Origin: Pristiophorus japonicus
Taxonomy: Eukaryota
Reading direction: 5' to 3'
DNA length: 64,000 nt
Assembly (NCBI RefSeq): GCF_044704955.1
Contig: NC_091985.1
Coordinates: forward strand, 201,252,001 to 201,316,000
A program made the translations under genes and the position numbers. Positions 3,877 to 56,852 of the stretch are shown piece by piece. Within the stretch, counting starts at the first letter, position 1. The number at the start of each line of letters is the position of its first letter. Under the pieces are notes generated by a model. That model was not told the DNA's origin. It ran no database searches and was given only the letters and a program-made list of their open reading frames with translations.

Positions 3877-4628
3877 CACAAACACATCTCCCTTTAGACT
3901 GAATTTACTGTAATTATTTCCCGTGTGTGAGAACCTTTGCAGTTCCAGGTGTAGATTTAGTTTTGATTTCTCATAAGCAGCTTCACTGACGGGTTCAACC
4001 TTGGCGTCGCTGGAATTTCCTGCAGAGTCAACTACAAACACGGTCCCTGGTCGCTTTCCCTTTGTTCTAAGACCCGTTCATTCACAGCGCCTGCCGACGA
4101 ATTTATTTTGGGGGGCGGGGAAACTCCGATTTCAGTCACATTCTCACTCAAGCCCTTTTCACGTTTTGTTTTATTCCGTTGCGGCTCAGTCCGTTTATTA
4201 ACCCGAGACTCCCCGCAGTGTAACAACCCAGAATGGGAGTTCTTAGAGACTAGAACAGGGGCAGTTTGAACACTCTGTCCCTCTTCTCTTTTCACAGAAG
4301 GACTCTCAGTTCTGGTCTCACTCCCACAGCAGCTCCTGTGAAAACAAGTTCACTTTTACAAAGCTGGAGCTGGAATGTGTCCCGTTACAGAATCAGTGGG
4401 GACTGAGTCCCGCCCGTTACAGACAGTTTGAAACTGAAGCCGAATTTAATCTTGATTGTAACAGGCTGGAATTTGCAAGGCAAACATGGAATAAGACAAA
4501 AGGAAACAAATTGTTGAGAAATATATGACTAATGGTGAAGTTACTAACATAATCCGCAATTTTAACAATTATTGGCGGGATTTTTGAATTTTAAAAATCG
4601 TTACATTCTGACTGTTGGGAACCAGTAA

Positions 4629-8198
<3,570 letters not shown>

Positions 8199-9047
8199 GA
8201 TCATCAAGTTATGCTGCCGTGCTGATGACATCACTGGCCGCGACTTTGACATCTTAAGTAGGCCACCTGTCTGCTTTTGGTGGGGGTCTCGTCGAGTGGC
8301 TTAATCGTTGACGTAAATATTATGGCTGCCAGGAATGGAGCAGGTTGAAGGCGGGATTTCTAATTTCAAGATTTTAACCCCTCGCCCAACACATTCCTGC
8401 CTGTTGTTGGGGTGGGGGTTAAAATAGAGGCCTAAATTTCTAACTTTTGTAGAGCAGCAAATGCATTAGGTATCCAAGTATGTGCCTAAAATGATAGTTA
8501 ATGCTCCAGTCAGACAGGAATGAAGTAATGCAGAAATCCGCTGGTGTTGAACCCAGAATGTAGCTATTGGTTTCAGACTGGTAGCTGCTGTGTAAATGGA
8601 CCCTGTGAGAATTTGCTATGACAGAAATTTCTGCAATAGACTAACTTGCCAAATGATTCACACCAACTATGGGTGGTCTTGGAATCAGAGTGCAAAAAAT
8701 AGGGGCTATGTAGGCTCTCAACTCGCAAGGGTTTAAGTTACCCGAGATAACCACCAAACCTATCCTTATTCTTAATGGTGCTAAATTAGGACAGATCATG
8801 CAGCTCATAAGGAAATTAATGCAGTTAAGCAAAAGTGTGGTTGGCAGTGGTCTTTCCAAAACCTTCAAATCCTATGGCAATTGCAAATGTATAATATATT
8901 AAAAATAGTAAGTGGCTTCAACAGTCGGTACTGTGCCTGCAAGGGAGGGTCACACTATGTGAACTTTTATGTACAGAGCGCTGGACTAATGTTATGCGAT
9001 AGTCCCTTCCCGTCAATCGCAAGGAAGAAACAATATACAAAGAAAAA

Positions 9048-9452
9048 GAAATGACATGCATTTCTATCGCACCTTTCATGACCTCAGGGCGTTCCAAAGC
9101 GCTTTACAACCAATGAAGTACTTTCCAAATGCAGTCACTGTTGTAAAGTAGGAAAAACAGCAGCCAATTTGTGCACATCAAGCTCTCACTAACAGCAATT
9201 AAATAAATGACCAGATCATCTGTTTTACGTGTTGGTTGAGGATAAATGTCTGCCAGGACACCAGGAGAATCCCCTGCTCGTCCTCGAACAATGCCATGGG
9301 ATCCTCTACATCCACCTGAGAGAGCAGACTCGGTTCCACATCTCTGAAAGATGGCACCTCGAACACCAACACTCCCTCAGCACCGCACTGAAGTGTCAGC
9401 CCAGATCATGTGCTCAAGTTTCTGGAGTGGGCCTTGAACCACAACCTTCTGC
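9048..9452 (-). mobile_element. tRNA-derived DeuSINE (SacSINE1-like)
   Basis: Reverse complement matches the SINEs at 55290 and 61630 (CAGAAGGTTGTGGTTCAAG B-box region, GATCCCATGGCA core, AAAGCGCTTTGG tail). Confidence 0.8.
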
Positions 9453-10522
9453 CTCAAAAATAAAACAGTCACAACAAAGTCCAATTTTTACCCTAATATT
9501 TTTCCACAAGCATCCCAATTGTTAGTAAAAACATACATTTCGAATAATTTAATGATATGATGTATTCATGCATTTACATAAAATTGATTTTTTTTTACAA
9601 TATCTTGGGGTAGAGATCTAGATTGTTTACCTTTGCTTCAGTACTGTGTTAAAAACATTTATTTTAGACAGTCCTGGAGCGCAAGTCAAACCTAATGAAC
9701 TATATTACAGAAGTACAGAGTCAAAGGATGGCAGTGGTAGATTTTGCAGGTGAAATTTCACAGGGAATAATTTATCAGATTTAAGGGTAAGAAGAATAAC
9801 AATTGATCAAAAATTAACTGTTCGTGTATACTGTATGTTACTGTGAGCTGTAAGAGGATGTCAGCCAAATCATTAAATACGAGTTTGTAGCAAGTTTTGA
9901 CAACTTATTCTTTGTAATAGATTGTTTTTTAGATTAAAGGTCATCTGCCAGAATTCTTGGCTAATTTTGAATAGTTTATACACAAATAAATAAAGTATAT
10001 GAAAGTTAACGTTGACCTTCGAATCCTGAGTTAAATTCCATTCAATGGGCATTGATAGGCTCCCCCACCATCTTTACTTTTTCTTCTAATAGTTATCTAA
10101 CTTTATTGCAGAGTTCTCATTACCGACGGTTCTACATCTGCAAAGAACTGCTGATTTAAAATTGATGAAACGGACCTGAAATTAAGGGCTGAATCTTAAC
10201 TCCCAAAAACAGATGGCTGGGGTCGGGTCAAAGATTAAAATTTTAAAAATCTAAAACAGGAACCCAACCAGCCTCGAACCCGCCCACTTCTGGTTTTGAC
10301 GAGTGACCAATCCGCTCACGCGAGGCGGCTTGGTCATTTAAATATTAAAATGCCTGCCTTCATTTTAACAGTCATTCTATTTTTAACTCATGTCGGCTGG
10401 GATTCCCAATCCTTGGGAAACCTGGCGGATGAAAGGAGGTGAGAAGGGCTGAATCCATGAGGGAAGTGTCTTTACAGCACAGCTTGTGGGCCAGGAGCAG
10501 CAGGAATGTTTTCTCCAGAAAA

Positions 10523-10610
10523 CTGCTGCCCAAGAAAACCACCACTTCGTCCAAGAGCAAGTAAAGCGGACAAGATTTAATCTAATAACCCAAAGGCTCT
10601 TTTCAGAGCC
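10523..10610 (+). pseudogene. H2A: Detached 3' end of the H2A at 4809 ([13 protein letters not shown]) plus stem-loop
   Basis: Near-identical to 20377-20464; stop at 10562-10564; GGCTCTTTTCAGAGCC at 10595-10610. Confidence 0.93.
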
Positions 10611-10994
10611 ACTCACAGTATCTGAAAGGGCTGCTTACTGTATTATTGGAGACCTTCAGTTCAGGTACCGATAAATTGGTCTGTTTCAGACCTGTATGCG
10701 GGAGTTTTCAGTTCCTGGTATCTGCATTACGGTTCTCTGCTCACGCAAACTGTTCTAGTTAGCAGCTAATAATTAAATTACAGTTGTCAGAGACTCAAAA
10801 CTTGTATAAATACCGCAACCGGTTCCCTAAATATTATTTAGTCTATCAATGAAAGCTGTATGAAGAGAGTCGGCGGTTATTAAAAGGGCCTAATTTAATT
10901 CTGGTCTGGTTTGAGAGTTTGAATGCTGGTTCTGTTCCCGGGAGCTCCGGCTGTTCCCGGGCTGTGTATTTCTCTCCTTAGCCGGCCAGTTTAG

Positions 10995-11158
<164 letters not shown>

Positions 11159-11261
11159 TGATTCTGTATGGATAGATATTTTCGCCAAGGTCTATATATT
11201 TTAAATCAGCATATGCACGATGGATGGTATATCCTTTTAGTTTCAGAATTATAGACATTTA

Positions 11262-11564
11262 TCATCGAAGCTTCCAGCACGGAAGGAGGCCACTTCGGCC
11301 CATCGTGTCCGTGCTGGCCAACAAAAGGTTATCCAGCCTAATCCCACTTTCCAGCTCGAGGTCCGTAACCCTGCAGATTACGGCACTTCAAGTGCACATC
11401 CAAGTAGTTTTAAATGTGGTGAGGGTTTCTGCCTCGACCACCCATTCAGGCAGTGAGTTCCAGACCCCCACCCTCTGCGTAAAGAAATTTCCCCTCTAAA
11501 CCTTCTGCCAATTACTTTAAATTTATGTCCCCAGTGCTAAGGGAAATAGGCCGTTTATGGCACA
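11262..11564 (-). mobile_element. Short 3' fragment of a second CR1 family (target of the Tx1 insertion)
   Basis: Matches the 3' end of the CR1 at 58196-58500. Confidence 0.8.
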
Positions 11565-14500
11565 ACTCTTTTGGGGAAAACATAATAAATTAATCCAAGT
11601 GCGCCCCGATCTGGGGGACACTCCAAACACTTTTTTTTTGGGTGATTTTAGTGGGGTTTATTTGGGCAGTAAAACCATAATTTACAAGTGCTCCCTATAA
11701 AAGGGGAGGGGGACACTAAAACCCAGCAATTAAAACAAATTAAACTTTAAAACATATAAAATCATATTAAAATTTGGTTGCCGGGGGTGACAATGCACTC
11801 CAGTCCCTCCGGCGCACATCTCTCGCGGAAGGCCGCGAGCATACCGGTGGACACCGTGTGCTCCATCTCTAGGGACACCCCAGCCCGGATGTAAGCACGG
11901 AAGAGAGGCAGGCAGTCAGGCTGAATGACCCCCTCGACCGCCCGCTGCCTGGACTGGCTGATGGCACCCTTGGCCGTGCCCAGGAGCAGTCCTACAAGGA
12001 GGCATTCGGACCTACCCGCTCCCCTCCGCACAGGGTGCCCAAAGATCAGGAGTGTGAGACTGAAGTGCAACCAGAAATTGAGGAGCAGCCCCTTTAAATA
12101 TTGGAACAGGGACTGCAACCTCATACATTCACTAAAAACGTGGAACACGGACTCTTCCAGACCGCAGAAATTGCAGGCGGTCTGGGAGCCCGTGAACCAA
12201 CTTAAACATTTATTGCACGGGACTGCTCCGTGTACCACCCTCTAGGCCAAGTCCCCAATAAATAATGGGAGGACTCCCACGTAGAGTGCACTCCATCCTC
12301 CGGACAGCAAGATGGTACGCCATGGCATGTCCGGACGGCAGACGAGGATGGCAAGGTTGAGAGTGTGCAGGAGCAGCCCGTACAGGAAACCCCTCCGTGC
12401 AGAACTGAAAGGCACGGAGGGGATTTCCCCGAGGCGGCTCAAGTTGTGAGGTGCCGGCTCCCGAGGGAGGTTCCGGGGTTTGGCGCTGATGAGTTTGGAC
12501 GGGATCTCTTCACGTGCTTGAGCCTCCTCGACACACCTAACGGAGTCAGGGCCCAGAGCTGTTTTTAACAACTCGATGGCATCGGCCACGCGGCAGACGT
12601 CGGCCGAATTTAGGCGCCGTGCCAGCATGTCTGGCGCCATCCAGCCCTCTCCTCCGCGATCGAACAGGTCCCTGACCCTGGTCACCTCGCCAGCCGCAGC
12701 CCTCTCGTCTGACTGCCACCTGAAACCTCGGTCGTGGAGGTATGGATTCCCGAGCAGCGGCTCCTGCAGGACAGCCACCACTCCAGCCAGTGGAGAGCTG
12801 CACTTGGTGGAGACTTTGTTCCAGACCCTGATGAGTTCCTGCTAAAAGACAGGCAGCCCCTGGACAGCGGTCCTGATGCCCCTCAAGCTCACAAACAGGA
12901 GCTGCGTGTCATAGTTGAGGCTGTGCTGCTGGCGGAAGAAATATGTTGCCAGCGAATGCCACCTAGGAGGGGGCTCAACGTAAAGGTATCTCTGCAGGGT
13001 CTGAAGATGGAAAGTCGCTAGCTGGGTGCTGACGCACACCAACAACTGACCGCCCTCCCTAAGTGGGAGACTCAAGACCGCCGCAGAGACCCAGTGCTTC
13101 CTGTTGTTCCAGAAGAAGTCCACCAGCTTCTTCTGTATCTTGGCGACAAATGTGGGGGGAGGGGTCAAAGTGACCAGCTGGTACCACAGCATAGCGGCCA
13201 CCAGCTGGTTTCTGACTAGCACTCGACCCCTGTAGGACAGCACTCGGAGCAGTCCTGTCCAGCGCCCTAGGCGAGCGGCGACCTTGGCCTCCAGCTCTTG
13301 CCAATTTGCCGGCCAGGCTTCCTCGTCGGGGCTGAGATAGACTCCCAGATAGAGGAGATGGGTCATGCTCCAGGCAAAAGGCCTGAGCTCCTCCGGCAGG
13401 GAGTCCACCCACCACTGACCCACCAGGAGTCCGGAACATTTCTCCCAGTTGATCCTGGTGAAGGATGCAGCCGAATAAATCTCCTGGCACTCACGCATCC
13501 TCCGCAGGTCAATGGGATCCTCTACCGTGAGGAGCACGTCATCGGCGTAAGCCGAGAGGATGACCTCCATGCCCGGCCCTTGCAGAGACAGTCCGCTCAA
13601 CCTCGTCCGCAGGAGTCGCAGGAAAGTCTCCACGCAGATGGCATATAACTGGCCGACATGGGGCATCCCTGGCGCACCCCTCTTCTAAAGCAAAGGGGCG
13701 CCGTCAAGGACCCATTAACCTCAATCAGACACTCATGGCAGCATGCAAAAGTCGGATCCGGGCGACGAAATGCGTCCCGAACCCGAAAGCGTGCAGAGTT
13801 CCGAACAGATAGTCGTGATCCACCCTGTCGAACGCCTTCTCTTGGTCGAGAGATAGGAAGGCGACTGACAGACCAGCCTCCTGGGAGTGATGGATGAGGT
13901 CCCAGACCAGATGGATGTTATCGTGGATTGTCCGGCCCGGGACCGTGTAGGACTGGTCGGGGTGGATCATGTGGTCCAGCATGGCGCCAAGGCGAGCAGA
14001 CATCATCCTGACGAAGATTTTGTAGTCCGTGGTGAGGAGGGAGACCGGGCGCCAGTTCTTAAGTAGGCGGAGATCGCCCTTCTTGGGCAGCAGGACGATG
14101 ACTGCCCTGCACCAAGAGAGGGGCCTCTCCCCAGTCGCCAGACTTTCCCCCCAGGACCCACGTGTAGTCGCCCCCCAGGATGTCCCAGAACGCCCTGTGG
14201 AACTCCACAGTCAGCCCGTTCAGCCCCGGGGCTTTTCTCCTCGAGAGCGGGTGGAGGGCGCCGGTCAGCTCCGCCAGACTTAGCGGAGCTTCCAGATTTT
14301 CGGCGCCCTCTGGGCAGGTCCTCCCACAAAACTCTATGCGCTTCCTCGCTGGACAGCTCCGGAGAGAACAGAGCCCCGTAATATCCTCGGGCCCTGTTGC
14401 TGACGCCCTCCGGATCCGAGACAAGAGAGCCATCATCGGCCAGCAGCGTCAAGAGCTGCTTACGGACACCCTGTCTTTTTTCCAGTGAGTAGAAGAAGGG

Positions 14501-17500
14501 GGAGCCACGGTCCAGATCACGCAGGAACCGGATCCGCGACCTCACGAACGCGCCTCGGGACCCGATGAATTGCAGGTCCTTCAGTGCGGCCTTCTTCGCT
14601 TTGTTCACTGTCCGCAGGGCCGGGTCCTCGACGACTTGACCGAGACGGGACTCCAGGTCGAGCACCTCTTTTTCTAGGCGACCGACCCTGGCCGCCCACC
14701 CCTTGGTCGACACCCTCACATACTCTTTGCAGAAGACACGGACGTCAGCCTTGCCCACGTCCCACCATAACCTCAAGGAGAGGAAGTCCCCCTGCTTCCT
14801 TCTCCAGTTGGCCCAGAAACGACAGAACGAGTCCTGGAACCACTCGTCCTCCAGCATCTGGTTTTTAAAATGCCAGTACGCGGACCCCATCCTCGCATGG
14901 AGTGAAGCGAGCTCCGCCCACACCAGGTGGTGGTCCGAACACAGCGCCGGCCACATGGAGGCCGTCGGAACACAGGAAACGTACGCCGGAGACACGTAAA
15001 TGCGGTCGATTCTGGACCATCCTCTTCCAGGCCTCACCCAAGTAAAGGCGCTGGAGTTGGGATGGAGATTTCGCCAAACGTCCACCAAGTCGAAGGACCC
15101 AACCAGGTCCCTCAACTTCTCGATCGCTATCATGCTCTGCGGGGCACCGGAGCAGTCCCTCACCTCGAGGGTGCAGTTAAAATCCCCTCTGAGGACAATG
15201 CAGTTGCCGACGTCGACGGGGCCAAGAAGAGCGGACGCTTCTTCGAAGAAGCGCGTTTGCTGCGGGCCGGGCTGAGGGGCGTACACGTTCATGAGATGGA
15301 ACGGCATGTCCCCCAGGCGAACCGTGACGTGCAGCAATCGGCCTGGCATGGGCTCCTCGACCCCCAAGATCTCCGGCTGAAAATGCGGGGCCAGCAAGAT
15401 GGCCACCCCACAAGAAGTGGCAGTGAGGTGGCTCATGCGGACCTCTCCTTGCCATTCCAGGAGCCACGTGGCTTTGTCTCCCAGAACGGTGTGGGTTTCT
15501 TGCAGGAAGCACACCGCATATTTCCACTCCCGCAAGAGCGAAAAATTGTTAAATCTACGGCGTGCCTCTCTGCCACCGTTGATGTTGAGGCTGGCTATGG
15601 TTATCTTCATGAAAAAGCATAGTGCAACCTCTACTTAACCTATTGTGGGGGAGGAGTGGAGTTGTTTGTTGACCTCCACTCCCTCAGCAGCCGAGCGAGA
15701 AATGTTTTGAACTGGTGCAGCTCAAGGTTTTGCGCCTTTGATAAGGGCCCGCCCGCGGCCATGGTTTTAGCAGCAGCGTGGATGGACCTGATGAGGAGCG
15801 CCAGCTTGGACCATTTTTCCAGGGCCAGATAGGCTCGGTTGCGGCGACCCTGGCTCTGGACCATAAAGTCCCTGAGCTCCTTTACAGGAATAAGGGGGGA
15901 CTCAGCAGCGGGCACGAGGAGATCCACCGCCTCACTGGCGATGGACTCCAGATCTTCTCCCGTGCCCTCCACCGAGTCCCCATCTGCTCTGGGAGGTCGC
16001 CGCTAGCAGCCGGTCCGTCGACCGCCCGAGGTACGGCAAACTGCCCGGCCACTCCATCCGGCCCTGGCTCTGCCCCGATCCCGCCCCCAGGATCGTCGGC
16101 AGTGGAGTCTCCACTGGGCTCTTTTAACTTTTAATTGTGGTGCTGGGTCAGGAAGCGGCAGCGGAAGGGGTTCCCCCTCCGCCCCAGGTACCGGGGAACA
16201 TGGAGAGACCTGGTCCAAGAACCGCTCCAGGTCCTCCAAGTCCTCCAGCTCCAAAGTTGGGGGCGAGGGTTGGTGTTGTTCCCCCTTCCCGCCGCCACCC
16301 CCCAGCCCAGCATGTGTAGGTTCTTTAAAATTTTGAAAATTTTCTTTATCTGCCGGATCGAGCAGATCCCGGGAGGTGTTGTATATTGGCTGAGCAGGCT
16401 CAGGTTCGGCCTTTTCAGCCCCGCCCGCCTCAGTCCCCGGGACGCCCGACCCGGCGGCGATGCATTCCTCCGCCGGCCCCACGCCCTCCACAACAGGCAG
16501 ATCTTCCTCGCCATCCCCGGGAGGCAGAGGCTGGGCAGCCTCGACTGTCTGACCCTCCCCGGGGACAGATTCCCCCCCGCCTACGGCGCAGTTTGGGGGC
16601 GCTGGTGGGGGATGCGGGACATGCGGCAGGCACCAACTCCTCCGCGGAGGGATATTGTTCCCCCTCCGCCTCATTGGAGCGGCGCCTCCTTTTTTGTCTG
16701 GGGGGGTGCGGAGGCAGGGAGACCTCCATGTCTGCCAAGGCCTCCCGCTCGCTCCCCCTTTTTGTTTTTCTTGCCCGCGTCCGAGCCCTCTGTGGTATTG
16801 GTCGAGGGCTCGGGCACGGGCTCAGGGCACCCCGCGCTCGCCGGTGACAACGGGTAGGCTGAGCGCGGTGATGGGGCTGTTCAGCGCACTGAGGGGACCC
16901 GTCTCGAGGAATTTTACCTTCCTCCGCGCCTTCCTTCCGCCCGGACGCTCTCCCTACCCCCCGCCAGAGGCCATGAAGACAAAGGCCTCCGATGATGTCC
17001 GCGCACCCACGCGGATGCTACTAGGGGGAGGGGTGGCGGCGGCGCCAGCCTTGGCCGCCTTTGGTGTTTTGGCGGCCTTGGAGGCGGAGCAGTTCTTACG
17101 AACGTGCCCCACCTCCCTACAGGCATGGCACCGCACGCCGTCCGACGTCCAAAAGATGCGGTAGGCAGTCCACTCGAGCACCACATTGAAGGTGCCCTCC
17201 GTCATCTCCTCCCGCGCCAGCCGGACAAAAAGCTGGCAGCGGAATGAGAACACGTGACGCAGGCTGGTCTCCCTGAGGCCGAGCGGTATCGGGTTAATCC
17301 CCGACCTTACCTCCCCCAGTTGATGTAGGTGGGGGAGCAGGAGCTCAGCGGGAACAAAGGGCGGGGCGTTCGAAAGAATGACCCTCTGCATGGTGGCTTT
17401 GAGAGAGTCCAGTGGCTGGAACGTCCCACCTACCGTGAGCCCCTTTTCAACAGCCAGGGACACCGCCCGCTCCGACCCCAGGAAGAACACAGCCTTCGCG

Positions 17501-18077
17501 GACATCTTGGAGGCTGCGACAATGGCCGAGGGGCCGACTACCCCAGCCATCGCCCGCACGCACTCCTTGATGCTCATACTAGGGTGTGTAGCTCTTGACT
17601 CCATATTTTTTAGTTATTAATCTAAATGGTGGCAGGGCAGCAGGAGGCACAGGAGGCACCATGCGTAAGTCTTAACAGGCCCTGCCACCGACGTGGATGG
17701 GGTCTCCATCACAGGGTCCCTTTAAGGGCTACACTCACACCAAAGTCACAGGCCTTAATGGTCTTAATAGGCCTCGTTAAGTGTGTGAGCAGACGGAGCT
17801 CTTAATGAGGCATACCTCTCCCCTAGTTAACGATTGGGGAGGGTCCTTGCTCCCTCTGCTCAGTTGTCTTGATTTTTTAATTAGGAGGAAAGTGCTCTCA
17901 GGGAGAGAGGGGAGAGACAGAGAGAGTGACAGAGAGAGAGAGAGAGAGGTGGGAAAGAGGGAAGCAGTGAGGGGAGGTCTCCCCTCACAGTGCTGGGTGG
18001 GTGTTTTGCTGGGGTGCACTCCCCAGATGGCAAAAAAACACAGTCTTATTCGGTGGTCTTCGGGTGGGGGGGGGGGG
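11565..18077 (-). mobile_element. Near full-length Tx1/L1-clade non-LTR retrotransposon, frameshifted
   Basis: ORF1 (~17709-15640) with CHACREVGHVRKNC zinc knuckle; ORF2 (15610-11762) with MKITIASLNING/LQETH/GDFNC/SDH APE, LDQEKAFDRV and AYADD RT, C-terminal CNFC..H..C; (TC)n in the 5'UTR; flanked by direct repeats. Confidence 0.93.
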
Positions 18078-18724
18078 TTCTGCCTCGACCACCCATTCAG
18101 GCAGTGAGTTCCAGACCCCCACCCTCTACGTGAAGAAATTTCCCCTCTAAACCTGCCAATTACTTTAAATTTATGTCCCCTGTGCTAAGGGAAATAGGCC
18201 GTTTACGGCACAGAAGGTACGGCATATTCCAGTGAAGGTAATACTGAAACAACTAATATAGTTACAGCAGTGACAGATAAGAAAGGTATTGAATTAAACG
18301 GTGGGAGGAAGGCAGCATCAGGGCGGAAGGACAGTGAGGGTCTTTTGCCCTCACAGTAGGACTCCCAAGTCCTGACCAGAAGTGACCTTCAGGCAATCTC
18401 GGATACAAACCAGTCAATGTCTGTCGAACATGCAGATATCTAGATCGATAAAGAACAGATTATGGCTCGGGAGGGGATGTAACTGATGACCTAATTCAAT
18501 AATTTGAGATTGTGGCGAGCAGTAAATCTGATTGGATATTTAAAGAGATCAATCAGAGAATTGCAGAACAATGGAAATTGACAACGCAGCGAATGAACCA
18601 ATCACAATCGTTGCCTTCACCCATCCTTCATTAGCATAGGGCTGTGGGCGGAGTGTGGGGCTGCCTATATAATACGAGCTCCGAGCTGAATTTACGTCAT
18701 GTCTGGGTCGGATTGAACAAGACG

Positions 18725-19102
18725 ATGCCTGAAGAGAAGAAATCAGTTACTGCCAAGAAAGGCGCTAAGAAAGTGATCAAGAAAACGCCATCGAAGGGCA
18801 GCAAGAGGCGCAGAAAGTCGAGGAAGGAGAGTTACTCCATTTACATCTACAAAGTGATGAAACAGGTTCACCCCGACACCGGCATCTCCTCCAAGGCCAT
18901 GGGCATCATGAACTCGTTTGTGAACGATATTTTCGAGCGCATCGCGAGTGAGGCTTCCCGCCTGGCCCATTACAACAAGCGCTGCACCATCAGCTCCCGG
19001 GAGATCCAGACCGCCGTGCGCCTGCTGCTGCCCGGGGAGCTGGCCAAGCACGCCGTGTCGGAAGGGACAAAGGCGGTCACCAAGTATACCAGCTCCAAGT
19101 AA
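18725..19102 (+). CDS. H2B: Histone H2B (125 aa)
   Basis: ATG at 18725; TATATAA at 18666, CCAAT and GC boxes upstream; stem-loop at 19141-19156. Confidence 0.95.
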
Positions 19103-19974
19103 AGCTCCACGCTGTTCTGACGGAATAAACCCCAAACAACGGCTCTTTTAAGAGCCACCCACAACCTCTCTGAAAGAGCTGCACAAACGCGTCATCCGTT
19201 AACCTCCATTTACTGTAGTTATTTCCTGAGCAAGTGTTTTTGACAACATTTAAAGATCCAGGGTAGATTTAGATACGAATTTTTAGATAATCGGTTTTAC
19301 TGTCCGGTTCAGCCTTAGCTTCGCTGATGAATTTCTCTCCCAGTAAACTACAAACATTTCCCTGGTCGCCTGCCGACGATTTATGGTCTTGTTTTAGGGG
19401 GCGAGACTCAGACTTTACTCACCTCATTCTCTCAAGCCCTTTTCAATAAAAACAATTCTAGTTAATCAACCCGCTTATTACCTGCGTGTGCAACAACCCA
19501 GAATAGGAGTTCTTACAGAGACCTGAACGGGGCAGTATGAACACACTCCCTCTTTTTTCACAGAAGGACTCCCAGTTCTGGTCTCACTCCCGCCTGTGCG
19601 GAGGATCGATCCATGATCTGTGATTCCCAAATTGTACAAAGATTGAGCTGGAATGTGTCCCGTTGCAGAATGTTTGACAGTGAACCATAATTTAATCCTG
19701 ATTGTAACATCCTGGAATTTGGAAGGCAATATGGAATAAAAAAAGTGTTTGGAAATCTTTTGCTAATGATGAATTTATTAACATAATCCGCATTGTAAAA
19801 ATTATTGGCGGGGTTTTTGAAATTGAAGATTCGTTGGAAGTCGAACAATAATTTTCGCCCTCTTTTCAGTGGCAAACTAAGCAGATGGTGATTGGTCATC
19901 GGAAAAGACCAATGAAATGCACCGCAGAGCGACCAATCACAAGTTCACTCCCTGCATCCCTCCAGAATGTATAA

Positions 19975-20828: not shown

Positions 20829-21280
20829 GTATGGAGAAGTTTTCAGTTCCCGTTCTCTGCATTACGGTTCTCTGCTCACACATACACTCTTCCAGTTAAC
20901 AGCGAATAACTGAACTACAGTTATCACTCAACAATTGTATAAATACCGCCACCGGTTCCTTAAATATTCTTTCGTCTTGTCTATGGAAACTAGAGAGTCG
21001 GCGGTGATGAATTAATATAGTAATCAAAGGGCCTAGTTTAATTCTGGTCTGGTTTGAGATAATTTGAATGCTGCTTCTGTTCCCGGGCTGTGTGTATTTC
21101 TCTGCATCAGCTAGCGATGTACACACACAGGACCCGGGTCAATTGCAGTGCTTCCCAGATCTGCCTGCCCCCATTCTCCGGCAACACCGATTGGGGAAAC
21201 CTGTGCTCTGCCCCGGGGAACTCAAGCTCAGAGCGACGCAAATCCGATGTCAGTTTCTGAAAATATTAAAGGGCTCATTA

Positions 21281-22045
<765 letters not shown>

Positions 22046-23916: not shown

Positions 23917-24573
23917 TTACTTTTTGGACGCTGCTTTCTTGGGTCTTGCTGCTTTCTTGGGTCTTGCTGATTTGGCCTTGGCCCTCGGTTTTTCCACCTT
24001 TTTGGACGCCTTCACCTTTGCACCTGAGGCCTTCTTGGGGCCCTTGGGCTTCTGCGCCGCTGCCTTCTTCCCAGCCGCCGCTTTCGCTGTCTTTTTTACT
24101 GTTGGCGCCTTCTTGGTGCTCGTTTTCTTGGCTGGAGATTTCTTGGCTGCTGGTTTCTTGGCTGGAGATTTCTTGGCTGCTGGTTTCTTGGCTGGAGGTT
24201 TCTTGGCTGCTGGTTTCTTCACCTTCCTTCCCACTTTCCCCTGGTTTTCCTTCTTAGCGACTTTGAAGGAGCCCGAGGCGCCCGTGCCCTTGGTCTGCAC
24301 CAGGAAGCCATTTGTCACATTCCTCTTGATACTGAACCTGATCTGGGACCCGCGCTTCTCCACATCCACGCCTTTGGCCGCCAGAGCCTTCTTTATCGCG
24401 GCCAGGGACATCCCCTTGCGATCGCTGCCATCGGCCACAACCTTGAGGATCTGTTCGCCCAACGTGGGGCCGGCTGGCTTGGAGCGGGGAGCCGCCTTCT
24501 TCTTCTTGCTGGGAGCCTTGGTTTGAGTGGCGGCGGCAGGAGGAGCGGTTTCGGCGGCTGCAGTGTCAGTCAT
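23917..24573 (-). CDS. H1: Linker histone H1 (218 aa)
   Basis: MTDTAAAETAPP start, globular domain (GMSLAAIKKAL...QTKGTGASGSFK), K/A/P-rich tail with SPAKK repeats; stem-loop at 23866-23881. Confidence 0.95.
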   Translation of the reverse strand: MTDTAAAETAPPAAATQTKAPSKKKKAAPRSKPAGPTLGEQILKVVADGSDRKGMSLAAIKKALAAKGVDVEKRGSQIRFSIKRNVTNGFLVQTKGTGASGSFKVAKKENQGKVGRKVKKPAAKKPPAKKPAAKKSPAKKPAAKKSPAKKTSTKKAPTVKKTAKAAAGKKAAAQKPKGPKKASGAKVKASKKVEKPRAKAKSARPKKAARPKKAASKK

Positions 24574-24649
24574 GTCCGCGACTCTGTGGAAAACCTCTCT
24601 GACAGTCAGAGCTCGGTCAGAAATGAAACGGGAGGCGGCGGCACAGAGC

Positions 24650-24724
24650 AACTTAAAGGCAGCAAGCGGACGGGGCGGAGACATCCTGCTGTCAGCTCCC
24701 CGCCCCTCCAGCCTCTCTGTGTTT
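24650..24724 (-). promoter_or_regulatory. H1 promoter: H1/AC box, GC boxes, TATA-like element
   Basis: AAACACA (tgtgttt at 24718-24724), GGGGCGG boxes, TTTAAG. Confidence 0.7.
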
Positions 24725-26835: not shown

Positions 26836-27544
26836 AAGGGAGACAGAATGGGAAGGATCTGCTGTTTACAATCATTGCTGCTTTCTTCCTGCAGACCAGT
26901 AGTGAACGTTCCTGCTTTAGTTCCAGTCTCACTATGTTTGTTGTCATTGGACAGTGAGCAGTGGAAGCAGAGCCGGACACTGAGGATTTATACAAGGAGT
27001 TTCTATTGCAGGCACCGGGTGAGAAATGTGAAGGACACGTTTTAAACAGCGGTTCTTTGTTCCTGGTTGAACGGTTAGTGCCCTGGGAAAGGGGAGTAGC
27101 AATCTGAGCTGTGTAAAAGTCCGTGCTCCATCGGGTCGTCCCATTCCTGAAGCAGGGCAGGGGTTGGGTTGTGTCTGGATGTCAGTAACTTGCTGTAAAT
27201 CTGCCCAACACACTTGGTGTGCAGAAGCCGAGTGCTGCAGTACTGCAGTGGAGTCAGACACTGACACTGTTTGTATCGCTGGCTTCCCTTTGCGAATGTT
27301 CATAATGAATATTAATTGAACGCTTACATTCATCACTTTAGTCTTTTTTCTACCTCTCCTATTCTTGAATGATCAGAGATATCTTCTCCTACAGGCAAGG
27401 AATTGAAGAAACCGGAACAAATGTGAAGTTTCCTCCACCTGAGACATAAGGAACAGTGTAACCAACTCCTTCTCACACACAGTAGGTACGGTACCTATCA
27501 CAGTGTGCGGGTACACAGACAGGTTATCCGAATTAAACATGTTT

Positions 27545-28482
27545 GTGGTGCTGAATGGCTTCCTCCTATTCCTGTGTAACAGGCCTGAGGGGGCTGATGG
27601 CCACCTCCTGTTCCAATTTAACAGACTGGAGATACTGAGTGGCCTTCTCCTGTTCCTAATGTAATAAACACGAGGGGCTTAATGGCCTCCTCCTGTTCTT
27701 ATGTAACAAGCTCTAGGGGCAGAATGACTTCCCCCTGTGCCTATGCATCAGGCTAGAATGGGATGAATGGCCTCCTTTAGTTCTTATGTAACAGGTTCCA
27801 GGGGCTGAATAGCCACTTCTATTCAAGTGTAACAGACTCCAGGGACTGAATGGCCTCCTCCAGTTCCGATATAACAAGCTCGCGGGTCTGAATGTCCTCC
27901 TCCCGTTCCCATGAAACAGTTCCGTGGGGATGAATGTCCTTGTCCTATTCCTAATGTAACAGACCTGAGGGGCAGAATTGTGTCATCCTATTGCTTTCTA
28001 ACTCCAATTGCTGAATGGCCCTCTCCAGTTCTTAATGTAATATGCTCGAGGAGCTGAATGGCCTTCTCCAGTTCCAAATGTAATAGGCTCAAGGAGCTGA
28101 ATGACCCTCTCCAGTTCCAAATGTAATTGGCTTGAAGAGCTGAATGGCCTTCTCCAGTTCCAAATGTAATAGGCTCGAGGAGCTGAATGGCCTCCTCCTG
28201 TTCCTATATAACATTCTCGAAGGGTTGAATGGCTTTCTCCTGCTCCCATGTCACAGGGCCAAAGGGCTGAATGGCCTGCTTATGATCCTAATTTAACATG
28301 CTTGAGGGGCTGAATGTCCTCCTCCAGTTCCTATATAACATGCAGGAGGGGCTGAAAGGCCTCCTCCAATTCCACTGTAACAGACTCGAGGGACTGAATG
28401 GCCTCCTCCTGTTCCTTATGTAACAGGCTCGAAGGGATGATTTGCCTCCAAGTTCCATGTGCTGAAAGGCCTCCTCAAGTTC
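27545..28482 (+). repeat. Minisatellite, 42-43-bp unit (AACAGGCTCGAGGGGCTGAATGGCCTCCTCCTGTTCCTATGT), ~20 diverged copies
   Basis: GCTGAATG recurs at 28053, 28096, 28139, 28182. Confidence 0.92.
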
Positions 28483-28817
28483 CCAGATCCAAGGACTGTT
28501 CTTCCCCGTTGTTTTGGAAATAGCATCGGGCAGTAAACAGGAGCTCAATGCTTCTTGCCCGCCAGCTCTCTGATCGGGCTCCTCGCGCTGATTATGTTTT
28601 CTCATCTCACTCAAACATCCCCAAATGTTGCTTTCTTTTCCATCACCTCTAGTGTTATTAGCCAAGTTTGCATCGAGCAAATCGTGATCTCACCAGTAAC
28701 AGCACTTTGCCGACGGTTATCCACGAGGCTGCTTCTGACATTTTCTTCTGCGTAAATGTTAACCACCGTAAGTAACTGAAAAGCTTCATTTCTACAGCAA
28801 CAACAAACACTTGCATT

Positions 28818-29145
28818 TATGACAGATACAGAATAAATCTCACATTCACTCACTGTACCCCTGACTGACAGATGCAGAATGAATCCCACACTCACTCACT
28901 GTACCACAGACTGACAGATACAGAGTTAATCCCACACTCACTCACTGTACCAGAGACTGACAGATACAGAGTTAATCCCACACTCACTCACTGTACCAGA
29001 GACTGACAGATACAGAGTGAATCCCACACTCACTCACTGTACCACTCACTGACAGATACAGAATTAATCCCACACTCGCTCACTGTACCACAGACTGATA
29101 GATACAGAATGAATACCACACTTACACACTGTACCACTGACAGTT
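28818..29145 (+). repeat. Minisatellite, ~46-bp unit (CTGACAGATACAGAGTTAATCCCACACTCACTCACTGTACCAGAGA)
   Basis: Direct tandem copies visible. Confidence 0.9.
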
Positions 29146-29259
29146 ATGGTTTATATAATGTACTAATAGCTAGTCTCTACTCCAAATATTTCTGAATCGC
29201 ATTTGTCCAATATAATGAAAAACTTTTGTCTGTTGGGTTCATCTCTGATCTGTAAATTT

Positions 29260-30450
29260 CACAGATATAGGATAAAACACACTCTCACATACCAGAAACT
29301 GACAGATACAGAATAAAACCAACACACAGATACAAAAACTGACAGGTGCAGAATAAATCCCACACTCACATACCAGAAACCGGCAGGTATAGAGGAAACA
29401 CACACTCACCCACCCCAGAATGAGAGATACAGAATGAATCCCACATTCACATTGCACAAACTGACATATAAAGGTAAAAATCCACACGCAGATACCAGAA
29501 ACTGACACCCCACACTTCTGCCACAAACTGACAGGTTCAGAAAAAAACACAATGACATCTCAGAAACTGACAGGTACATATTAATTCCTACACTCACACA
29601 GCAGTAACTGACAAGTACAGAATAAAACCCACATTCACATAGCAGAAACTGACAGGTACAGAATGCAATCCACACTTAGCTACCAGAAACTGACAGGTAC
29701 AGAATACAATCAATACCCAGATTCCAGAAACTGACAGGTACAGAATGCAATCCACACTTAGATACCAGAAAGTGACTGCTACAGATTAAAGCCACAGTCA
29801 CACATCAGAAAATGACAGGTATCGATTAAACCCCATACTCCCATACCGGAATCTGACAGGTACAGAATAAAATCCATACTCCAATCTGAAAAACTGATGG
29901 ATACTGGTCAATATCCACACTCAGATACCAGAAGCTGACGATACAGGTTAAAGTACACACACTCATATCAGAAACTGACAGGTACATGATAAAACACATA
30001 CAGACATAACCAAAACTGACCGATACAGATAAAGACCATACTCATCAGAAACTGATAGATATAGAATAAAACACACACTCACACATATCAGAAACTGATA
30101 GGTACACAATAAAACCCACACTCACATATAAGAAATTGACAGGGAGACAATAAAACCCAAACTCACATCTCAAAATTTGATAGGTACACAATAAATCCCA
30201 ACTCACATAGCAGAGACTGACAGGTACAGAATAAATCTCACATTCACTTCACAACAACTGACAGGTACAGAATAAAACACACACTCAGATACCAGAAACA
30301 AAGAGGTACAGTATGAATCCCACATTCACATCGCAGAAACAGACGGGTACAGTATGAAACCCACACCCATGTATCTGAGCAATAATATGCAAGTAAAACC
30401 CATACACGCCTGTCAGAAACTGACAGGGAAACACATGCCAGAGGCTGACG
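29260..30450 (+). repeat. Diverged ~40-bp minisatellite (CAGAAACTGACAGGTACAGAATAAAACCCACACTCACATAC)
   Basis: Recurring CAGAAACTGACAGGTACA core. Confidence 0.88.
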
Positions 30451-32256
30451 GAATGAGTAAAACAGTTTAGGCACTCGTACTCCAGTGTCAGGCTCACACA
30501 ATCATTTTTTCAGTAATTCGGATGATAACTAACATGCTCGCAATGTAGCCCATTTAATTAGTGATAAAAGCAACTTGTGAAATAATCCCATTTTTGCTAA
30601 TTTAATTTGTGACAAAAAGATGGTCTGAACATGCGCTAAATACACGCTGCTCCTCCCCTCCCCACAGTGTTTAAACCAACTGGAAGGGCCCATGTGAGCT
30701 CCCCTCCCCCAGCTCTGTCAGCGGCTGCCGTTTCCTCTGTGCTCGGCTGATGATCATTGAACACATCAGGGAGCAGAGATATCCCAGGCCCGAGTAAGGG
30801 AGCAAACATCAGCCTCCTTACAGCAGCTCATTGCATTGGGACTGTGTCCGCAGATGGGCTTTGAGTCGGGGTAAGTTCAGCGGCAGTCGGGGGCTGTCTG
30901 TAAGAGGCAGAGTGGAGCAGGAAGTAGTTCCAGAACATGGAGTGAGTGGGGGAAGGGAGAGGCCATTCTCTGGTTGTGTGTGTTCAGTGTAAGGTAACCG
31001 AGAAAGTAAATCACCTCGCTCCTTCAAATCATTGCTGCTTTCTTTCCCCAAATCAGTAGTGAATGTTCCTGATTCAGTTCCAATCTCAGTGTCTGTTGTT
31101 CTTGGACATTGAACAGTGTAAACACAGCCTGGATGTGAGGAGTGTCACAAAGTGCATCTACTGCAGATACCAAAAGAGGAATGTGATAGGAGATATTTCA
31201 AAAATGGGTTATTTTGTTTCGGTGCATTGAATTCTCCAGAACCATGTTGCTGGTGATCGAGAGATACATTGTCGCTCCCTCAGATACATCAGCATCTGGT
31301 AACTGTGACATTCTGTTAATGACACAGGCCCTCAGCTCGGTTTCAATAGACTGAGAACAATTGTTGTACAGCCCAGGTACCTGTGGTTATATTCCAGGAA
31401 GCGATTCAGAATTGTACAGGTAGTCCCATGGGAGTGGGAGATATAAACCTGGACTGTGCCAATCGGGTGTCCCATTCATGGACCAGTGCTGGGTTTGGGT
31501 TGTGTCTGGATGCTGCTAACTTTCTATAGAACTGTCCTACACACCTGGTGTGGAAAATCTGAGTGTCGCTGTACTGCAGTGAGGTCAGACAATGACACTG
31601 TTTGTATCACGGTTTCCTCTCTCCAGATACTTTACTTTATTATACACAAACACATGAATTATAAATTTATTCTCTCCATTGCCTGTCCATATCATAACTA
31701 ATAGTGTTCTCCTATTATTATTCTCAGAGCAAAATACTTCACCAAGCCAGAATAAATTTGATCTTTCCTCAACCCGGAACACAAGAAACAAGTGCAGGCA
31801 GCTCCTTCTCACACACAGTAAGTACATTATCAATCTCAGAGCGCTGAGACACAGAACTGACTGCAATCATATTGCCAAAGATAGCAGAAGCTGTCAGTCC
31901 CACAGTGATCCAAATTCCCAGAGTTATGTTATGAATCCCACAGTCACTTGGAGCAGCACAATAATATGTTGTTCCAAAGTCCAATCATATTGCATTGAAA
32001 GGCAGATCCCTTACTCAGACACATGAACAGAGAGACACTGACACGGTGTCAATCCACACTGGTGTCTGTACACTGACTCTCAAACCCAACTGCTCTCATA
32101 CAAGAGCAGAGAAACAGAGGTAATGGCCTGAACCAAACCTCCTCCTGAGACAGTCATCGATAATCGCAAACTATCATCCGCCTACAGCAGGTGGAGAAGG
32201 AACCAAATCCAACAGTCACACAGAGCAAGAATAGCTCAGTACAAGAGACTGTCAAT

Positions 32257-32915
32257 TACATAATCAATCCCACACTCACACACATCACCAGTCTAACAGA
32301 TACATAATCAATCCCACACTCACACACATCACCAGTCTAACAGATACATAATAAATCCCACACTCTCACAGATCACCAACCTAACATATACATAATCAAT
32401 CCCACACTCTCACACATCACCAGTCTAACAGATACATAATCAATCCCACACTCACACACATCACCAGTCTAACAGATACATAATCAATCCCACACTCACA
32501 CACATCACCAGTCTAACAGATACATAATCAATCACACACTCACACACATCACCAGTCTAACAGATACATAATCAATCCCACACTCACACACATCACCAGT
32601 CTAACAGATACATAATAAATCCCACACTCACACACATCACCAGTCTAACAGATACATAATAAATCCCACACTCTCACACATCACCAACCTAACATATACA
32701 TAATAAATCCCACACTCTCACACATCACCAGTCTAACAGATACATAATCAATCCCACACTCTCACACATCACCAGTCTAACAGATACATAATCAATCTCA
32801 CACTCACACACATCACCAGTCTAACAGATACATAATCAATCCCACACTCTCAAACAGTAACAGAAACTGACAGCTACAGAATTAATCCCACACTCTCAAA
32901 CAGTACCAGAGACTG
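32257..32915 (+). repeat. Homogeneous 44-bp minisatellite (TACATAATCAATCCCACACTCACACACATCACCAGTCTAACAGA)
   Basis: About 14 near-identical copies, period 44 (32257 to 32301). Confidence 0.95.
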
Positions 32916-33144
32916 GGATTAACAATGATTCATAAACTCAGACACATTGAATGACAGATTGAGAAAGAATCACAATCACCTCCAATACCTGAGATTGACT
33001 GACTGATTGAGAGTGAAACCCACACTCCCCTACCAGGCCCTTACAGCTACAGACAAATACTCACACTCGCATACCAGGGACAGATAGTTAGAGAGTGAAC
33101 TCCAGTCACTCACCAGAAACTGAGAGGTACAGAAAAAAAACACT

Positions 33145-33760
33145 TCCGCATTCCAGAGACCGATAGATACAGAGTAATACCCACACTCACATTCCAGAGA
33201 CTGATAGATACAGAATAATACCCACACTCACATTCCAGAGACCGATTGATACAGAGTAATACCCACACTCACATTCCAGAGACTGATAGACAGAGTAACA
33301 CCCACACTCACATTCCAGAGACTGATAGATACACAGTAATACCCACACTCACATTCCAGAGACCGATAGATACAGAGTAATACCCACACTCACATTCCAG
33401 AGACTGATAGACAGAGTAACACCCACACTCACATTCCAGAGACTGAGAGAGTAATACCCACACTCACATTCCAGAGACTGAGAGAGTAATACCCACACTC
33501 ACATTCCAGAGACTGATAGATAGAGTAATACCCACACTCACATTCCAGAGAATGATAGATACAGCGTAATACCCACACTCACATTCCAGAGACCAATAGA
33601 TACAGAGTAATATCCACACTCACATTCCAGATACTGATAGATAGAGTAATACCCACACTCACATTCCAGAGACTGATAGATACAGAGTAATACCCACACT
33701 CACATTCCAGAGACCGATAGATCGAGTAATACGGACACTCACATTCCAGAGACTGACAAA
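33145..33760 (+). repeat. Homogeneous ~41-bp minisatellite (GATAGATACAGAGTAATACCCACACTCACATTCCAGAGACT)
   Basis: Period 41 (33162 to 33203) with shortened variants. Confidence 0.95.
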
Positions 33761-35170
33761 TATAAATTAAAAACCACACTCCCATAACAGAAACCTACAG
33801 GTACTGATTAAAACCCTTACTCAAATATCAGAAACAGATAGCTACAGAATGAAACGCACACTCACTTCCCAGTGATGGACAGATACAGAATAAAACACCA
33901 GAGAGTGACAGAGAGAGAGTAAAATCAACACTGACCTAAAAGTGACTGACTGATTCAATGTCAAACCCCCAATACCACAGCTGTACCAGACACTTAAAGG
34001 CACAGAATGAAATCAACATTTATATAATAGCAACTGACGGGTACAGAAAACATACACACATTAACATGCCAGTGACAGACAGGTAGAATGTGGTAAACTC
34101 CACACTCACATAACAGAAACTGTGACCTATAGAATATAACCCCATTCATAACAGAAACAGACAGGTACAGATAAAAAGTGCCACACTCACACACAAGAAA
34201 CTGACAGGTACAGAGTGAAATCCACGTTCACCCACTTGAATAAAACACACATTCGCATAACAGCAACTGACAGGAGTAAAACCCACATACACATCCCAGA
34301 GACTGACAGCTGTAGAGTAAAATCCACATTCTCATAAAAGTGACTGACAGATAAAGAATAAAACGCACACTCACATCCCAGAGAGTGAAAGATACAGACA
34401 AAAATACACATTCATGTTACTGAGATTGACACTTGCACATAATACCCAAACCCATATACCAGAAACTGACAGATACAGAGAAAAATTCACACTCAAATCC
34501 CAGAGACTGACAGATGGAGTAAAACCCACTCTCACATACCATAGACTGACAAATACAGAGTAAAACCCACACTCACATACCATAGACTGATGGATACAGA
34601 ATAAAACCCACACTCACATACCAGAAACTGACAGGTACAGATTAAAGCCCACATTCACATCAGAAAAACTGAAAGGTGCAGAATGAAGCCCCATTCAAAT
34701 ACCAGAAACAGACAGGTACAGACAGAAGCACACATTACCTGAAACTGACCGAGAGTAAAACCCACACTCACCTACCAGAGATTGAAATTTACCGATACAA
34801 TCCACACATATACCAGAGACTGACAAGTATAGTGTGAAATCCAAACTCACACTCCGAAAACTGTTATATACAGAGTAAAATTCACACTCACATACCATAG
34901 TCTGAGAGATAGAGTAATACCCACACACAAATATCAGAAACAGACACAGGTAAAACCCACACTCACATATCAGAAAATGACAAGGACTGTGTAAATCCAA
35001 CACTCACATACCAGAGAATGAAAGATACAGAATGAAACCCACACTCACTTACCAGTAATTGACAGGTACAGAGTGAAAACCTCCCTTCCATACCATAAAC
35101 TTACATGTATAAAGGAAAAGCCACATTCGCTAACCAGAGACTGACAGATACAGAATAAATACTACACTCA
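33761..35170 (+). repeat. Diverged ~40-bp minisatellite, same family as 29260-30450
   Basis: CCCACACTCACATACCAGAAACTGACAG motifs. Confidence 0.85.
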
Positions 35171-37848: not shown

Positions 37849-38691
37849 ATGGAGAAACCATGGGAATGTGGGGACTGTGGGAAGAGATTCATTTCCCCGT
37901 CTGATCTGGAAATTCATCGACGCAGTCACACCGGGGAGAGGCCGTTCACCTGCTCTGATTGTGGGAAGGGATTCACTTGTTCATCCAACCTTCTAACTCA
38001 CCAGCGATTTCACACTGGAGAGAGACCGTTCATCTGCTCTGAATGTGGGAAAGGATTCACTGTGTCATCCCGCCTGCTGACACACCAACGAGTTCACACT
38101 GGGGAGAGACCGTTCATCTGCTCTGTATGTGGGAAGGGATTCACTATCTCATCCATCCTGCTGATACACCAGCGAGTTCACACTGAGGAGAAGTCGTTCA
38201 CCTGCTCCGTTTGTGGGGAGCGATTCGCTTGGTCATCCCACCTGCTGGTGCATCAGCGAGTTCACGCTGCGGAGAGGCCGTTCATCTGCTCACTGTGTGG
38301 AAAGGGATTCACTCAGTCATCCCACCTGCTGACACACCAGCGCATTCACACTGGGGAGAGACCATTCACTTGCACTGAGTGTGGGAAGGGATTCACTCAG
38401 TCATCCCACCTGCTGAGACACCAGCGCATTCACGCTGGGGAGAGGCCATTCACCTGCACTGAGTGTGGGAAGGGATTCACTCAGTCATCCCACCTGCTGA
38501 CGCACCAGCACATTCACATTGGGGAGAGACCATTCACCTGCACTGAGTGTGGGAAGGGATTCACTCAGTCATCCAACCTACTGACACACCAGCGCATTCA
38601 CACTGGGGAGAGACCGTTCACCTGCTCTGTGTGTGGGAAGCGATTCACTCGATCATTCCACCTGCTGAGACACCAGCGAGTTCACAAGTGA
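37849..38691 (+). CDS. Tandem C2H2 zinc-finger protein, 10 fingers, 280 aa (ZNF locus 1)
   Basis: CxxC-x12-HxxxH repeats with TGERPF linkers; strong Kozak context GCACCATGG; no KRAB/SCAN domain seen. Confidence 0.88.
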
Positions 38692-55925: not shown

Positions 55926-56852
55926 TCACTTGTGAACTCGCTGGTGTCTCAGCAGGTGGGACGATCGAGTGAATCCCTTCCCACACATGGAGCAGGTGAA
56001 TGGCCTCTCTCCAGTGTGAGTGCGTTTGTGTCTCATCAGATCATTTCTGCTTTTAAATCTCTTCTCACAGTCAGAACATTTAAACGGTCTCTCATTGGTG
56101 TGAACAACTTGGTGTGCAGTGAGGCTGGCTGCCACAGAGAATCCCTTCCCACACACAGAGCAGGTGAATGGCCTCTCCCCAGTGTGAGTGCGTTGGTGGG
56201 TCAGCAGGTTGGATGAACTAGTAAATCCCTTCCCACACATGGAGCAGGTGAACGGCCTCTCCCCAGTGTGAATGCGTTGGTGTACCATCAGATCATTTCT
56301 GCTTTTAAAGCTCTTCTCACAGACAGAACATTTAAACGGTCTCTTATTGGTGTGAACAAGTTGGTGTGCAGTGAAGTGGGATGACTGAGTGAATCCCTTC
56401 CCACACTCAGAGCAGGTAAACGGCCTCTCGACAGTGTGAACTCGCTGGTGAGCCAGAAGGTGGGGTGAATTAGTGAATCTCTTCCCACACACGGAGCAGG
56501 TGAATGGCCTCTCGACAGTGTGAGTGCGCAGGTGTCTCAGGTGGTGAGATGATTTCATGAATCCTTTCCCACACACAGAGCAGACGAACGGTCTCTCTCT
56601 GGCGTGATCTCGCTGGTGATCAGTGAGGTGAGATGAACAAGTGAATCCCTTCCCACACATGGAGCAGGTGAACGGCCTCTCCCCAGTGTGAACCCGCTGG
56701 TGTACAGTGAGATTGGATGAGTGAGTAAATCCTTTCCCACACATGGAGCAGGTGAACGGCCTCTCCCCAGTGTGACTGCGTCGATGAATTTCCAGTTGAG
56801 ATGGGTAATGGAATTCCTTTCCACAATCCCCACATTTCCACAGTTTCTCCGT
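55926..56852 (-). CDS. Tandem C2H2 zinc-finger protein, 11 fingers (ZNF locus 4); the homologous start codon is ACG, first in-frame ATG at 56744
   Basis: Open frame 56852-55926; ends ...[10 protein letters not shown] like locus 1; AATAAA on minus at ~55791. Confidence 0.8.

Follow-up and report, generated by a model that had tools for sequence, protein, structure and literature searches.

The window, that is, the whole stretch of 64,000 nucleotides of Pristiophorus japonicus DNA analysed here, contains a Tx1-clade LINE that has inserted into the tail of an older CR1-type LINE and is flanked by a target-site duplication (TSD) of 138 bases, about ten times the usual length. We consider it probable, though well short of certain, that this reflects a single insertion in which the G-tailed cDNA paired with a G-rich patch 138 bp away from the first nick rather than at a distance of 10–30 bp.

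The Tx1 element and its host locus

The element occupies 6,513 bp on the minus strand (11565–18077) and is a decayed, full-length LINE. Read in its own sense, it starts with 12 C (G on the plus strand at 18066–18077) and ends in CCCCAAAAGAGT without a poly(A) tail, with an AATAAA motif and an A9 run located 98 and 75 nt inside the end; the C-run start and the absence of a poly(A) tail had both been noted in the original prediction. The 3′ UTR was assigned to 11565–11761 and the 5′ UTR to 17722–18077 (both minus strand), the latter comprising a TC-rich tract at 17900–17960 and the 12-C leader and being covered by public contigs at family-level depth. A Kibi-like element targeted to (TC)n was considered and rejected, as the TC tract belongs to the 5′ UTR and no such tract is present beyond the 3′ end.

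Based on tblastn and Pfam matches, ORF2 (11762–15610, minus strand) encodes an N-terminal APE endonuclease (Exo_endo_phos, PF03372, E 2e-11), a reverse transcriptase (RVT_1, PF00078, E 4e-19 and 6e-8) and a C-terminal CCHC-type motif, with the motifs QETH, GDFN, SDH and YADD present. Stops at 12844 and 12244, together with frame changes near 14.3, 14.15 and 13.7 kb, break the reading frame. The ORF1 region (15640–17721, minus strand; C-terminal extent approximate) lies upstream of ORF2, likewise in several broken frames, and carries a zinc knuckle of the form CxxCxxxxHxxxxC at 17130. This domain organization, with a zinc-knuckle ORF1 followed by an ORF2 with endonuclease and reverse transcriptase, is that of the Tx1 clade. 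The Pfam zf-CCHC model was matched below its curated cut-off and in one homologue (P0108) alone. ORF1 homologues had identities of 49–72 %, including one from Scyliorhinus torazame at 62 %, and ORF1 proteins at 64–72 % were found in JGI contigs.

The predicted Tx1-clade identity was borne out by named protein matches, by tblastn against Xenopus Tx1 and by an endonuclease tree. The best named matches of ORF2 were Tx1 proteins of turtle, sturgeon and Xenopus at 41–48 % identity, and its first 430 residues were 44 % identical to YTX2_XENLA (P0009). Identity to the Xenopus Tx1 ORF2 was 42–52 % across residues 1–1291, distributed over several frames in the tblastn alignment. The copy is full-length and dead, given that this match runs over several frames with stops. 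A phylogeny of the APE domain, which had been suggested as a check, placed the element with the Xenopus Tx1 ORF2 (P0009), P0007 and seven turtle rows at an SH-aLRT of 94, nested in a clade with Takifugu Tx1 at an SH-aLRT of 99. These values are from a quick IQ-TREE search on the endonuclease only, without a named mammalian L1 outgroup, using 97 rows (the window sequence and 96 of 106 hits, ten being dropped as too short or weak).

The insertion is located in a histone gene spacer. Its left neighbour is a histone H4 3′ remnant (10995–11080, plus strand), identified by translation, in which the last codons alone match, and by a DNA match to the intact H4 near 22.7–22.9 kb; its right neighbour is a histone H2B gene (18725–19102, plus strand) with a 3′ stem-loop at 19136–19181. 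Histone stem-loops were the only Rfam matches in the window, and the target of the element is a LINE tail in this spacer, not the rDNA target of an R9-like family. The host DNA of the insertion is a 5′-truncated remnant of an older LINE (11262–11552, minus strand), comprising an ORF2 C-terminus and a 3′ UTR with its own 3′ end at 11262, which we take to be of CR1 type from its motifs. Three further copies of this repeat are present in the window, one of which, at 58213–58504, matches it at 83 % and adjoins an RVT_1 ORF (58702–59187); the duplicated DNA is part of that abundant tail. At the CR1 truncation junction there is an extra piece of 17 nt (18201–18217, plus strand) that resembles the CR1 3′ end, agreeing with the end of that repeat at 11270 in 13 of 17 positions, and that is missing from the empty spacer (contig joint 11261 to 18232).

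The empty form was represented by one public contig, found in three of four runs at a depth of 91–127, which joins 11261 to the spacer beyond 18219, and a paralogous spacer at 1445–1552 has neither the CR1 piece nor the Tx1 element. Because spacer forms without it exist, 11262–18219 is taken to be entirely inserted DNA, with a 2-bp TA overlap. The inferred order of events is an empty spacer, followed by acquisition of the CR1 tail with the 17 extra bases, followed by insertion of the Tx1 element into the extra piece. Of the pre-insertion forms, the older, fully empty spacer alone was seen, a CR1-only form not being among the joints listed.

The first nick is placed inside the 17-nt piece, after 18212, which is equivalent to after 11564. 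The nick thus falls inside a CR1-3′-end-like 17-mer in this one copy (n=1). On sequence grounds, this position hints at targeting, and the Tx1 lineage often targets other transposons (PMC1950540; PMC4494074). Many Tx1 families, though not all, prefer a particular target sequence. Among the 24 loose-end rows listed (with 9,359 more), none had a shared flank near 11553 or 18077; this argues only faintly, if at all, against a single flank being dominant in the family.

Origin of the duplicated arms

The left arm of the TSD (11427–11564, plus strand, 138 nt) adjoins the 3′ end of the element and the right arm (18078–18212, plus strand, 135 nt) adjoins its 5′ end, in both cases with no spacer. Global alignment of the two arms reproduced exactly the coordinates, four substitutions and one 3-nt indel of the original prediction, and their BLAST match within the 64-kb window had an E value of 6e-59. 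Derived changes were private to each arm, with three substitutions on the left and one substitution plus the gap on the right. The resulting divergence of 3.0 % (95 % interval 0.8–7.4 %) is compatible with the decay of the element and with the condition of its family, which is very abundant in public contigs, most of them 90–99 % like the window copy. A longer TSD of about 149 bp, taking in the G-rich patch described below, was also considered and rejected, as it would need three substitutions to G and three extra G within 11 bases.

Three deletions, of 3, 10 and 12/15 nt, are common to the two arms and were missing from all three other copies of the repeat in the window, and the majority loose-end letters behind 11471 keep the first two deleted segments (76–77 contigs in two of four runs, X2 and X3). 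Both arms also cross the CR1 truncation point into the 17-nt extra piece, a junction specific to this locus. As the deletions and the junction are common to both, the arms derive from one local repeat copy. The flanking of the element by two unrelated CR1 copies is made very unlikely by the same shared features. The direct repeat therefore has the properties of a TSD from target-primed reverse transcription (TPRT), in that it abuts both ends of the element and stems from one copy of the pre-insertion site, and the genuine duplication that had been proposed stands on the deletions and junction common to both arms.

Membership of the 135-bp sequence in the element consensus had been named as one of two findings that would refute the original prediction. 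The summed contig depth at 18073, five bases inside the element, was 38–152, mostly with the CR1 letter A, compared with 195,000–244,000 in bin 17626–17876 and 9,000–13,000 in bin 18128–18378, all depths being from four public runs of one sample and the sums not representing copy number. Given how low this depth is relative to the 5′ UTR, the contigs of the family do not extend into the arm, and the arm is not part of the consensus.

More broadly, it could be supposed that no duplication took place, the repeat being element consensus, two independent CR1 copies or an assembly join between two paralogues. The arms do belong to a very abundant repeat, and no single contig spans the locus. Given the deletions and junction common to both arms, the near-zero depth across the 5′ junction and the independent derived changes on each arm, we regard this as extremely improbable.

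A different origin of the arms would be a recombinant or carried copy: either two Tx1 insertions 138 bp apart, in alleles or paralogues of the spacer, recombined through the element, or the RNA of a parent copy brought along 135 nt of target from its upstream side, which was then joined by homology. The multicopy nature of the spacer (an empty form at a depth of 91–127 and a paralogue in the window) and the abundance of the family are in keeping with such a history. Tx1-type elements with target-derived U1/U2 5′ heads exist (PMC4494074), and two of the loci recovered here (L050 and L087) have a U1-like start. Recombination would however need two insertions of the same family and in the same direction into one private CR1 copy, and no CR1-only or reciprocal contig was found among the 15 joints listed (with 467 more). 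An origin of this kind was thus judged quite improbable, and the preferred reading remains a duplication made by one insertion.

Position of the far junction

Just outside the left arm lies the G-rich patch GTGGTGAGGG (11416–11425, plus strand), which is the likely annealing site for a G-tailed cDNA end. With 7 G, it is unmatched by any other 10-mer in the 500 bp to that side of the first nick (491 positions). Three of 486 junction positions qualified at 7 G and 10 of 486 at 6 G in this test, which was designed after the junction had been seen and is therefore post hoc. The predicted duplex at the patch was −9.9 kcal/mol, against −7.3 kcal/mol for the next best; with a 15-nt tail the patch was no longer the best, 9 of 486 positions scoring equal or better. 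The exact letters in common at the far junction are three G after one skipped base. Few contigs cover the outer part of the G run, so that it may be partly non-templated or private to the window copy. The sequence of the far junction would nonetheless favour joining by annealing over a nucleosome ruler, since the patch offers a local cause for the position of the junction, a coincidence that a ruler does not predict.

Under the preferred reading, a plus-strand nick made by the APE domain after 11564 would have primed reverse transcription up to the C-rich 5′ end of the RNA, yielding a plus-strand cDNA ending in a run of 12 G. This G run could have annealed to the complement of GTGGTGAGGG at 11416–11425, where a distant nick or host repair at the patch would have primed second-strand synthesis. 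Fill-in would then have copied the intervening 138 bp, after which both arms and the element would have decayed neutrally.

A later repair of an insertion with a short or no TSD, in which a template switch at a nearby break copied 138 bp to the other end, would give a similar arrangement. Microhomology at one junction is also a mark of host template switching and is counted here in favour of this possibility, and the wide interval of the arm divergence allows a later date. The duplicate is however flush with the 3′ and 5′ terminal bases of the element, with no element or target sequence lost, and no nested short TSD is visible. Later repair is accordingly considered very improbable, and annealing during the insertion itself is retained as the preferred reading.

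Related events in human L1 bear on this reading in both directions. In HeLa cells, as many as 10 % of L1 events gave TSDs longer than 100 bp, and in NER-deficient cells most of them did; use of a distant nick has been modelled for the former and proposed for the latter (PMC5223499). Joining of the 5′ end by annealing is itself an established pathway (PMC4245944). Full-length human L1 insertions usually have no microhomology and TSDs of 10–20 bp (PMC2912911; PMC4245944), and their joining without microhomology (PMC2912911) counts against the annealing reading. The original statement that TSDs longer than 100 bp are described for a few elements only understated the case, as they recur in a minority of human L1 inserts (PMC5223499). 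Judged on priors, a duplication of this length is probably the exception, and most sister copies would carry short TSDs.

Alternatively, long duplications would be characteristic of this Tx1 family, which would then have either a fixed stagger of around 135 bp (nucleosome-spaced, for example, as in the original prediction) or a C-run leader that routinely seeks out a distant complementary patch. The R9 non-LTR family has a fixed 126-bp stagger (PMC6895275), and a 258-bp direct repeat, at most a candidate TSD, surrounds L084, a distant relative of Tx1-like type. G-rich patches occur within 30 bp of just 6–7 % of window sites, and patch-guided joining, if it were the rule, would therefore give long TSDs. 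A fixed ruler, in contrast, does not predict the coincidence with the G-rich patch. APE LINEs generally have TSDs of 10–20 bp (PMC6895275), and crocodilian SINEU elements, likely moved by Tx1-Mar, have TSDs of approximately 10 and 16 bp (PMC4494074). Overall, a family trait appears unlikely. A stronger version, in which an abundant Tx1 family of a cartilaginous fish routinely makes duplications of more than 100 bp through G-tailed cDNA seeking the nearest patch, with an endonuclease possibly homing to the CR1 3′ end, is distinctly unlikely. If true, the target sequence would determine the TSD length of an APE-type LINE that parasitizes the tail of another LINE.

Sister copies were sought in several ways. 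No second copy of the element is present in the 64-kb window, where it matches only itself and a TC tract. Patterns from the 3′ UTR gave no matches in metagenome, viral or genome contigs, and endonuclease and ORF1 queries gave no same-family loci in viral or genome contigs. The 93 loci recovered with reverse transcriptase queries did not exceed 56 % identity and had short DNA matches only, for which reason they were assigned to other families. Of these, 26 had sufficiently long flanks for a flank-repeat scan, which recovered microsatellites, RNA-gene arrays and short matches, and no usable TSD distribution. A search of phage sequences with the repeat gave no match, a result that carries no information here. 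In the public contigs, the summed depth of the family climbs from approximately 2e5 near the 5′ end to more than 1e6 towards the 3′ end, the gradient that 5′ truncation would produce. No publication on the TSD lengths of shark Tx1 families was found in a search that was thin on subscription papers and Repbase reports.

Comparison with known systems

Of all the steps in LINE insertion, second-strand cleavage and 5′ joining are the least well understood. Since long-TSD events are already known, a single old copy flanked by a long duplication contributes little in itself. The possible readings differ in the TSD length expected of full-length copies, which would track the nearest G-rich patch under annealing, peak at approximately 135–150 bp if chromatin sets the distance and be short if the present copy is an exception. 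If long duplications were the rule, the family would copy host DNA with each insertion and could be removed by recombination between its arms, and the duplications would escape standard TSD searches with an upper limit near 50 bp (e.g. PMC13295347).

One close likeness is to Tx1L of Xenopus laevis and its turtle and sturgeon relatives, which share with the window element two ORFs, an APE endonuclease with a reverse transcriptase and their grouping in the endonuclease tree. The window copy differs from Tx1L in being decayed and in its target specificity, which is at most putative, and the Tx1L duplication is 23 bp, compared with 138 bp here. Like the window element, Tx1L lies inside another transposon, Tx1D (PMC1950540), and so does Tx1-Mar, in Mariner-N4_AMi (PMC4494074).

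Human L1 insertions with long TSDs (an L-TSD class of more than 20 bp, with more than 100 bp in NER-deficient cells) are likewise products of an APE-type LINE with duplications longer than 100 bp, and have likewise been explained by a distant second nick or by annealing-type 5′ joining (PMC5223499; PMC4245944). Long-TSD inserts in HeLa cells were mostly 5′-truncated (PMC2912911), whereas the window Tx1 is full-length. The window element is moreover an old, fixed genomic copy, whereas the human L1 long TSDs are those of reporter inserts in cultured cells.

The R9 family of the rotifer Adineta vaga has a restriction-like endonuclease. It is rDNA-specific with a family-fixed stagger, whereas the window element has an APE endonuclease and a non-rDNA site, its duplication having been measured in one copy. 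The length of the duplication is nevertheless similar in the two, the R9 value being 126 bp (PMC6895275).

Histone genes and insertions in the H4–H2B spacers

Positions 1–24700 of the window are a histone cluster in decay. Intact-looking copies of H2B (at 3423 and at 18725), H2A (19984), H4 (about 22.7–23.0 kb, minus strand) and H1 (23917–24684) were found. Beside them lie two damaged copies of H4, one frameshifted near 1.0–1.3 kb and the other reduced to a remnant at 11.0 kb, as well as an H3 whose C-terminus is altered (21278–21907) and a shortened H2A, cut at 5174.

The H4–H2B spacer paralogous to the one holding the CR1 tail (a 5'-truncated CR1-type LINE piece) and Tx1 (the decayed Tx1-clade LINE) carries a separate LINE-type insertion at 1557–2853, independent of these two elements. 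This insertion displays a short overlap, GTTA, and lies ~45 bp from the point equivalent to the entry of the CR1 tail and Tx1 in the 11–18 kb spacer. The H4–H2B spacer seems to be insertion-prone.

Where the CR1 tail is truncated on its 5' side, 17 additional bases (18201–18217) resemble the CR1-type element's own 3'-end motif. This piece looks as if reverse transcription had switched template back onto an RNA 3' end.

Other features of the window

Large minisatellite arrays with 41–46-bp units occupy 27500–35100, and tandem C2H2 zinc-finger ORFs are present on opposite strands at 37849–38691 and 55926–56744.

Distant Tx1-like elements in public contigs

Among the loci matched by the RT queries, several distant Tx1-like elements lie inside or adjoining U1/U2/5S arrays and U4 and U5 genes (L050, L083, L087, L088, L068, L074 and L075). 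In L050 and in L087 the element stops at a U1 gene, and its start is a U1-like head. Apart from the RNA-gene-associated loci, seven further loci are flanked on both sides by (TC)n.

LINEs were also present in records titled as bacterial MAGs (L083, L084, L087, L088 and neighbours L081–L091), in three loci accompanied by spliceosomal snRNA arrays; this combination points to eukaryotic contamination of these records.

The distant Tx1-like element of L084, within a tRNA array, has on either side a 258-bp direct repeat (4127–4384 and 10171–10428, 96.5% alike) comprising a tRNA gene and about 190 bp, which may be a long target-site duplication or a target-derived 5' head.
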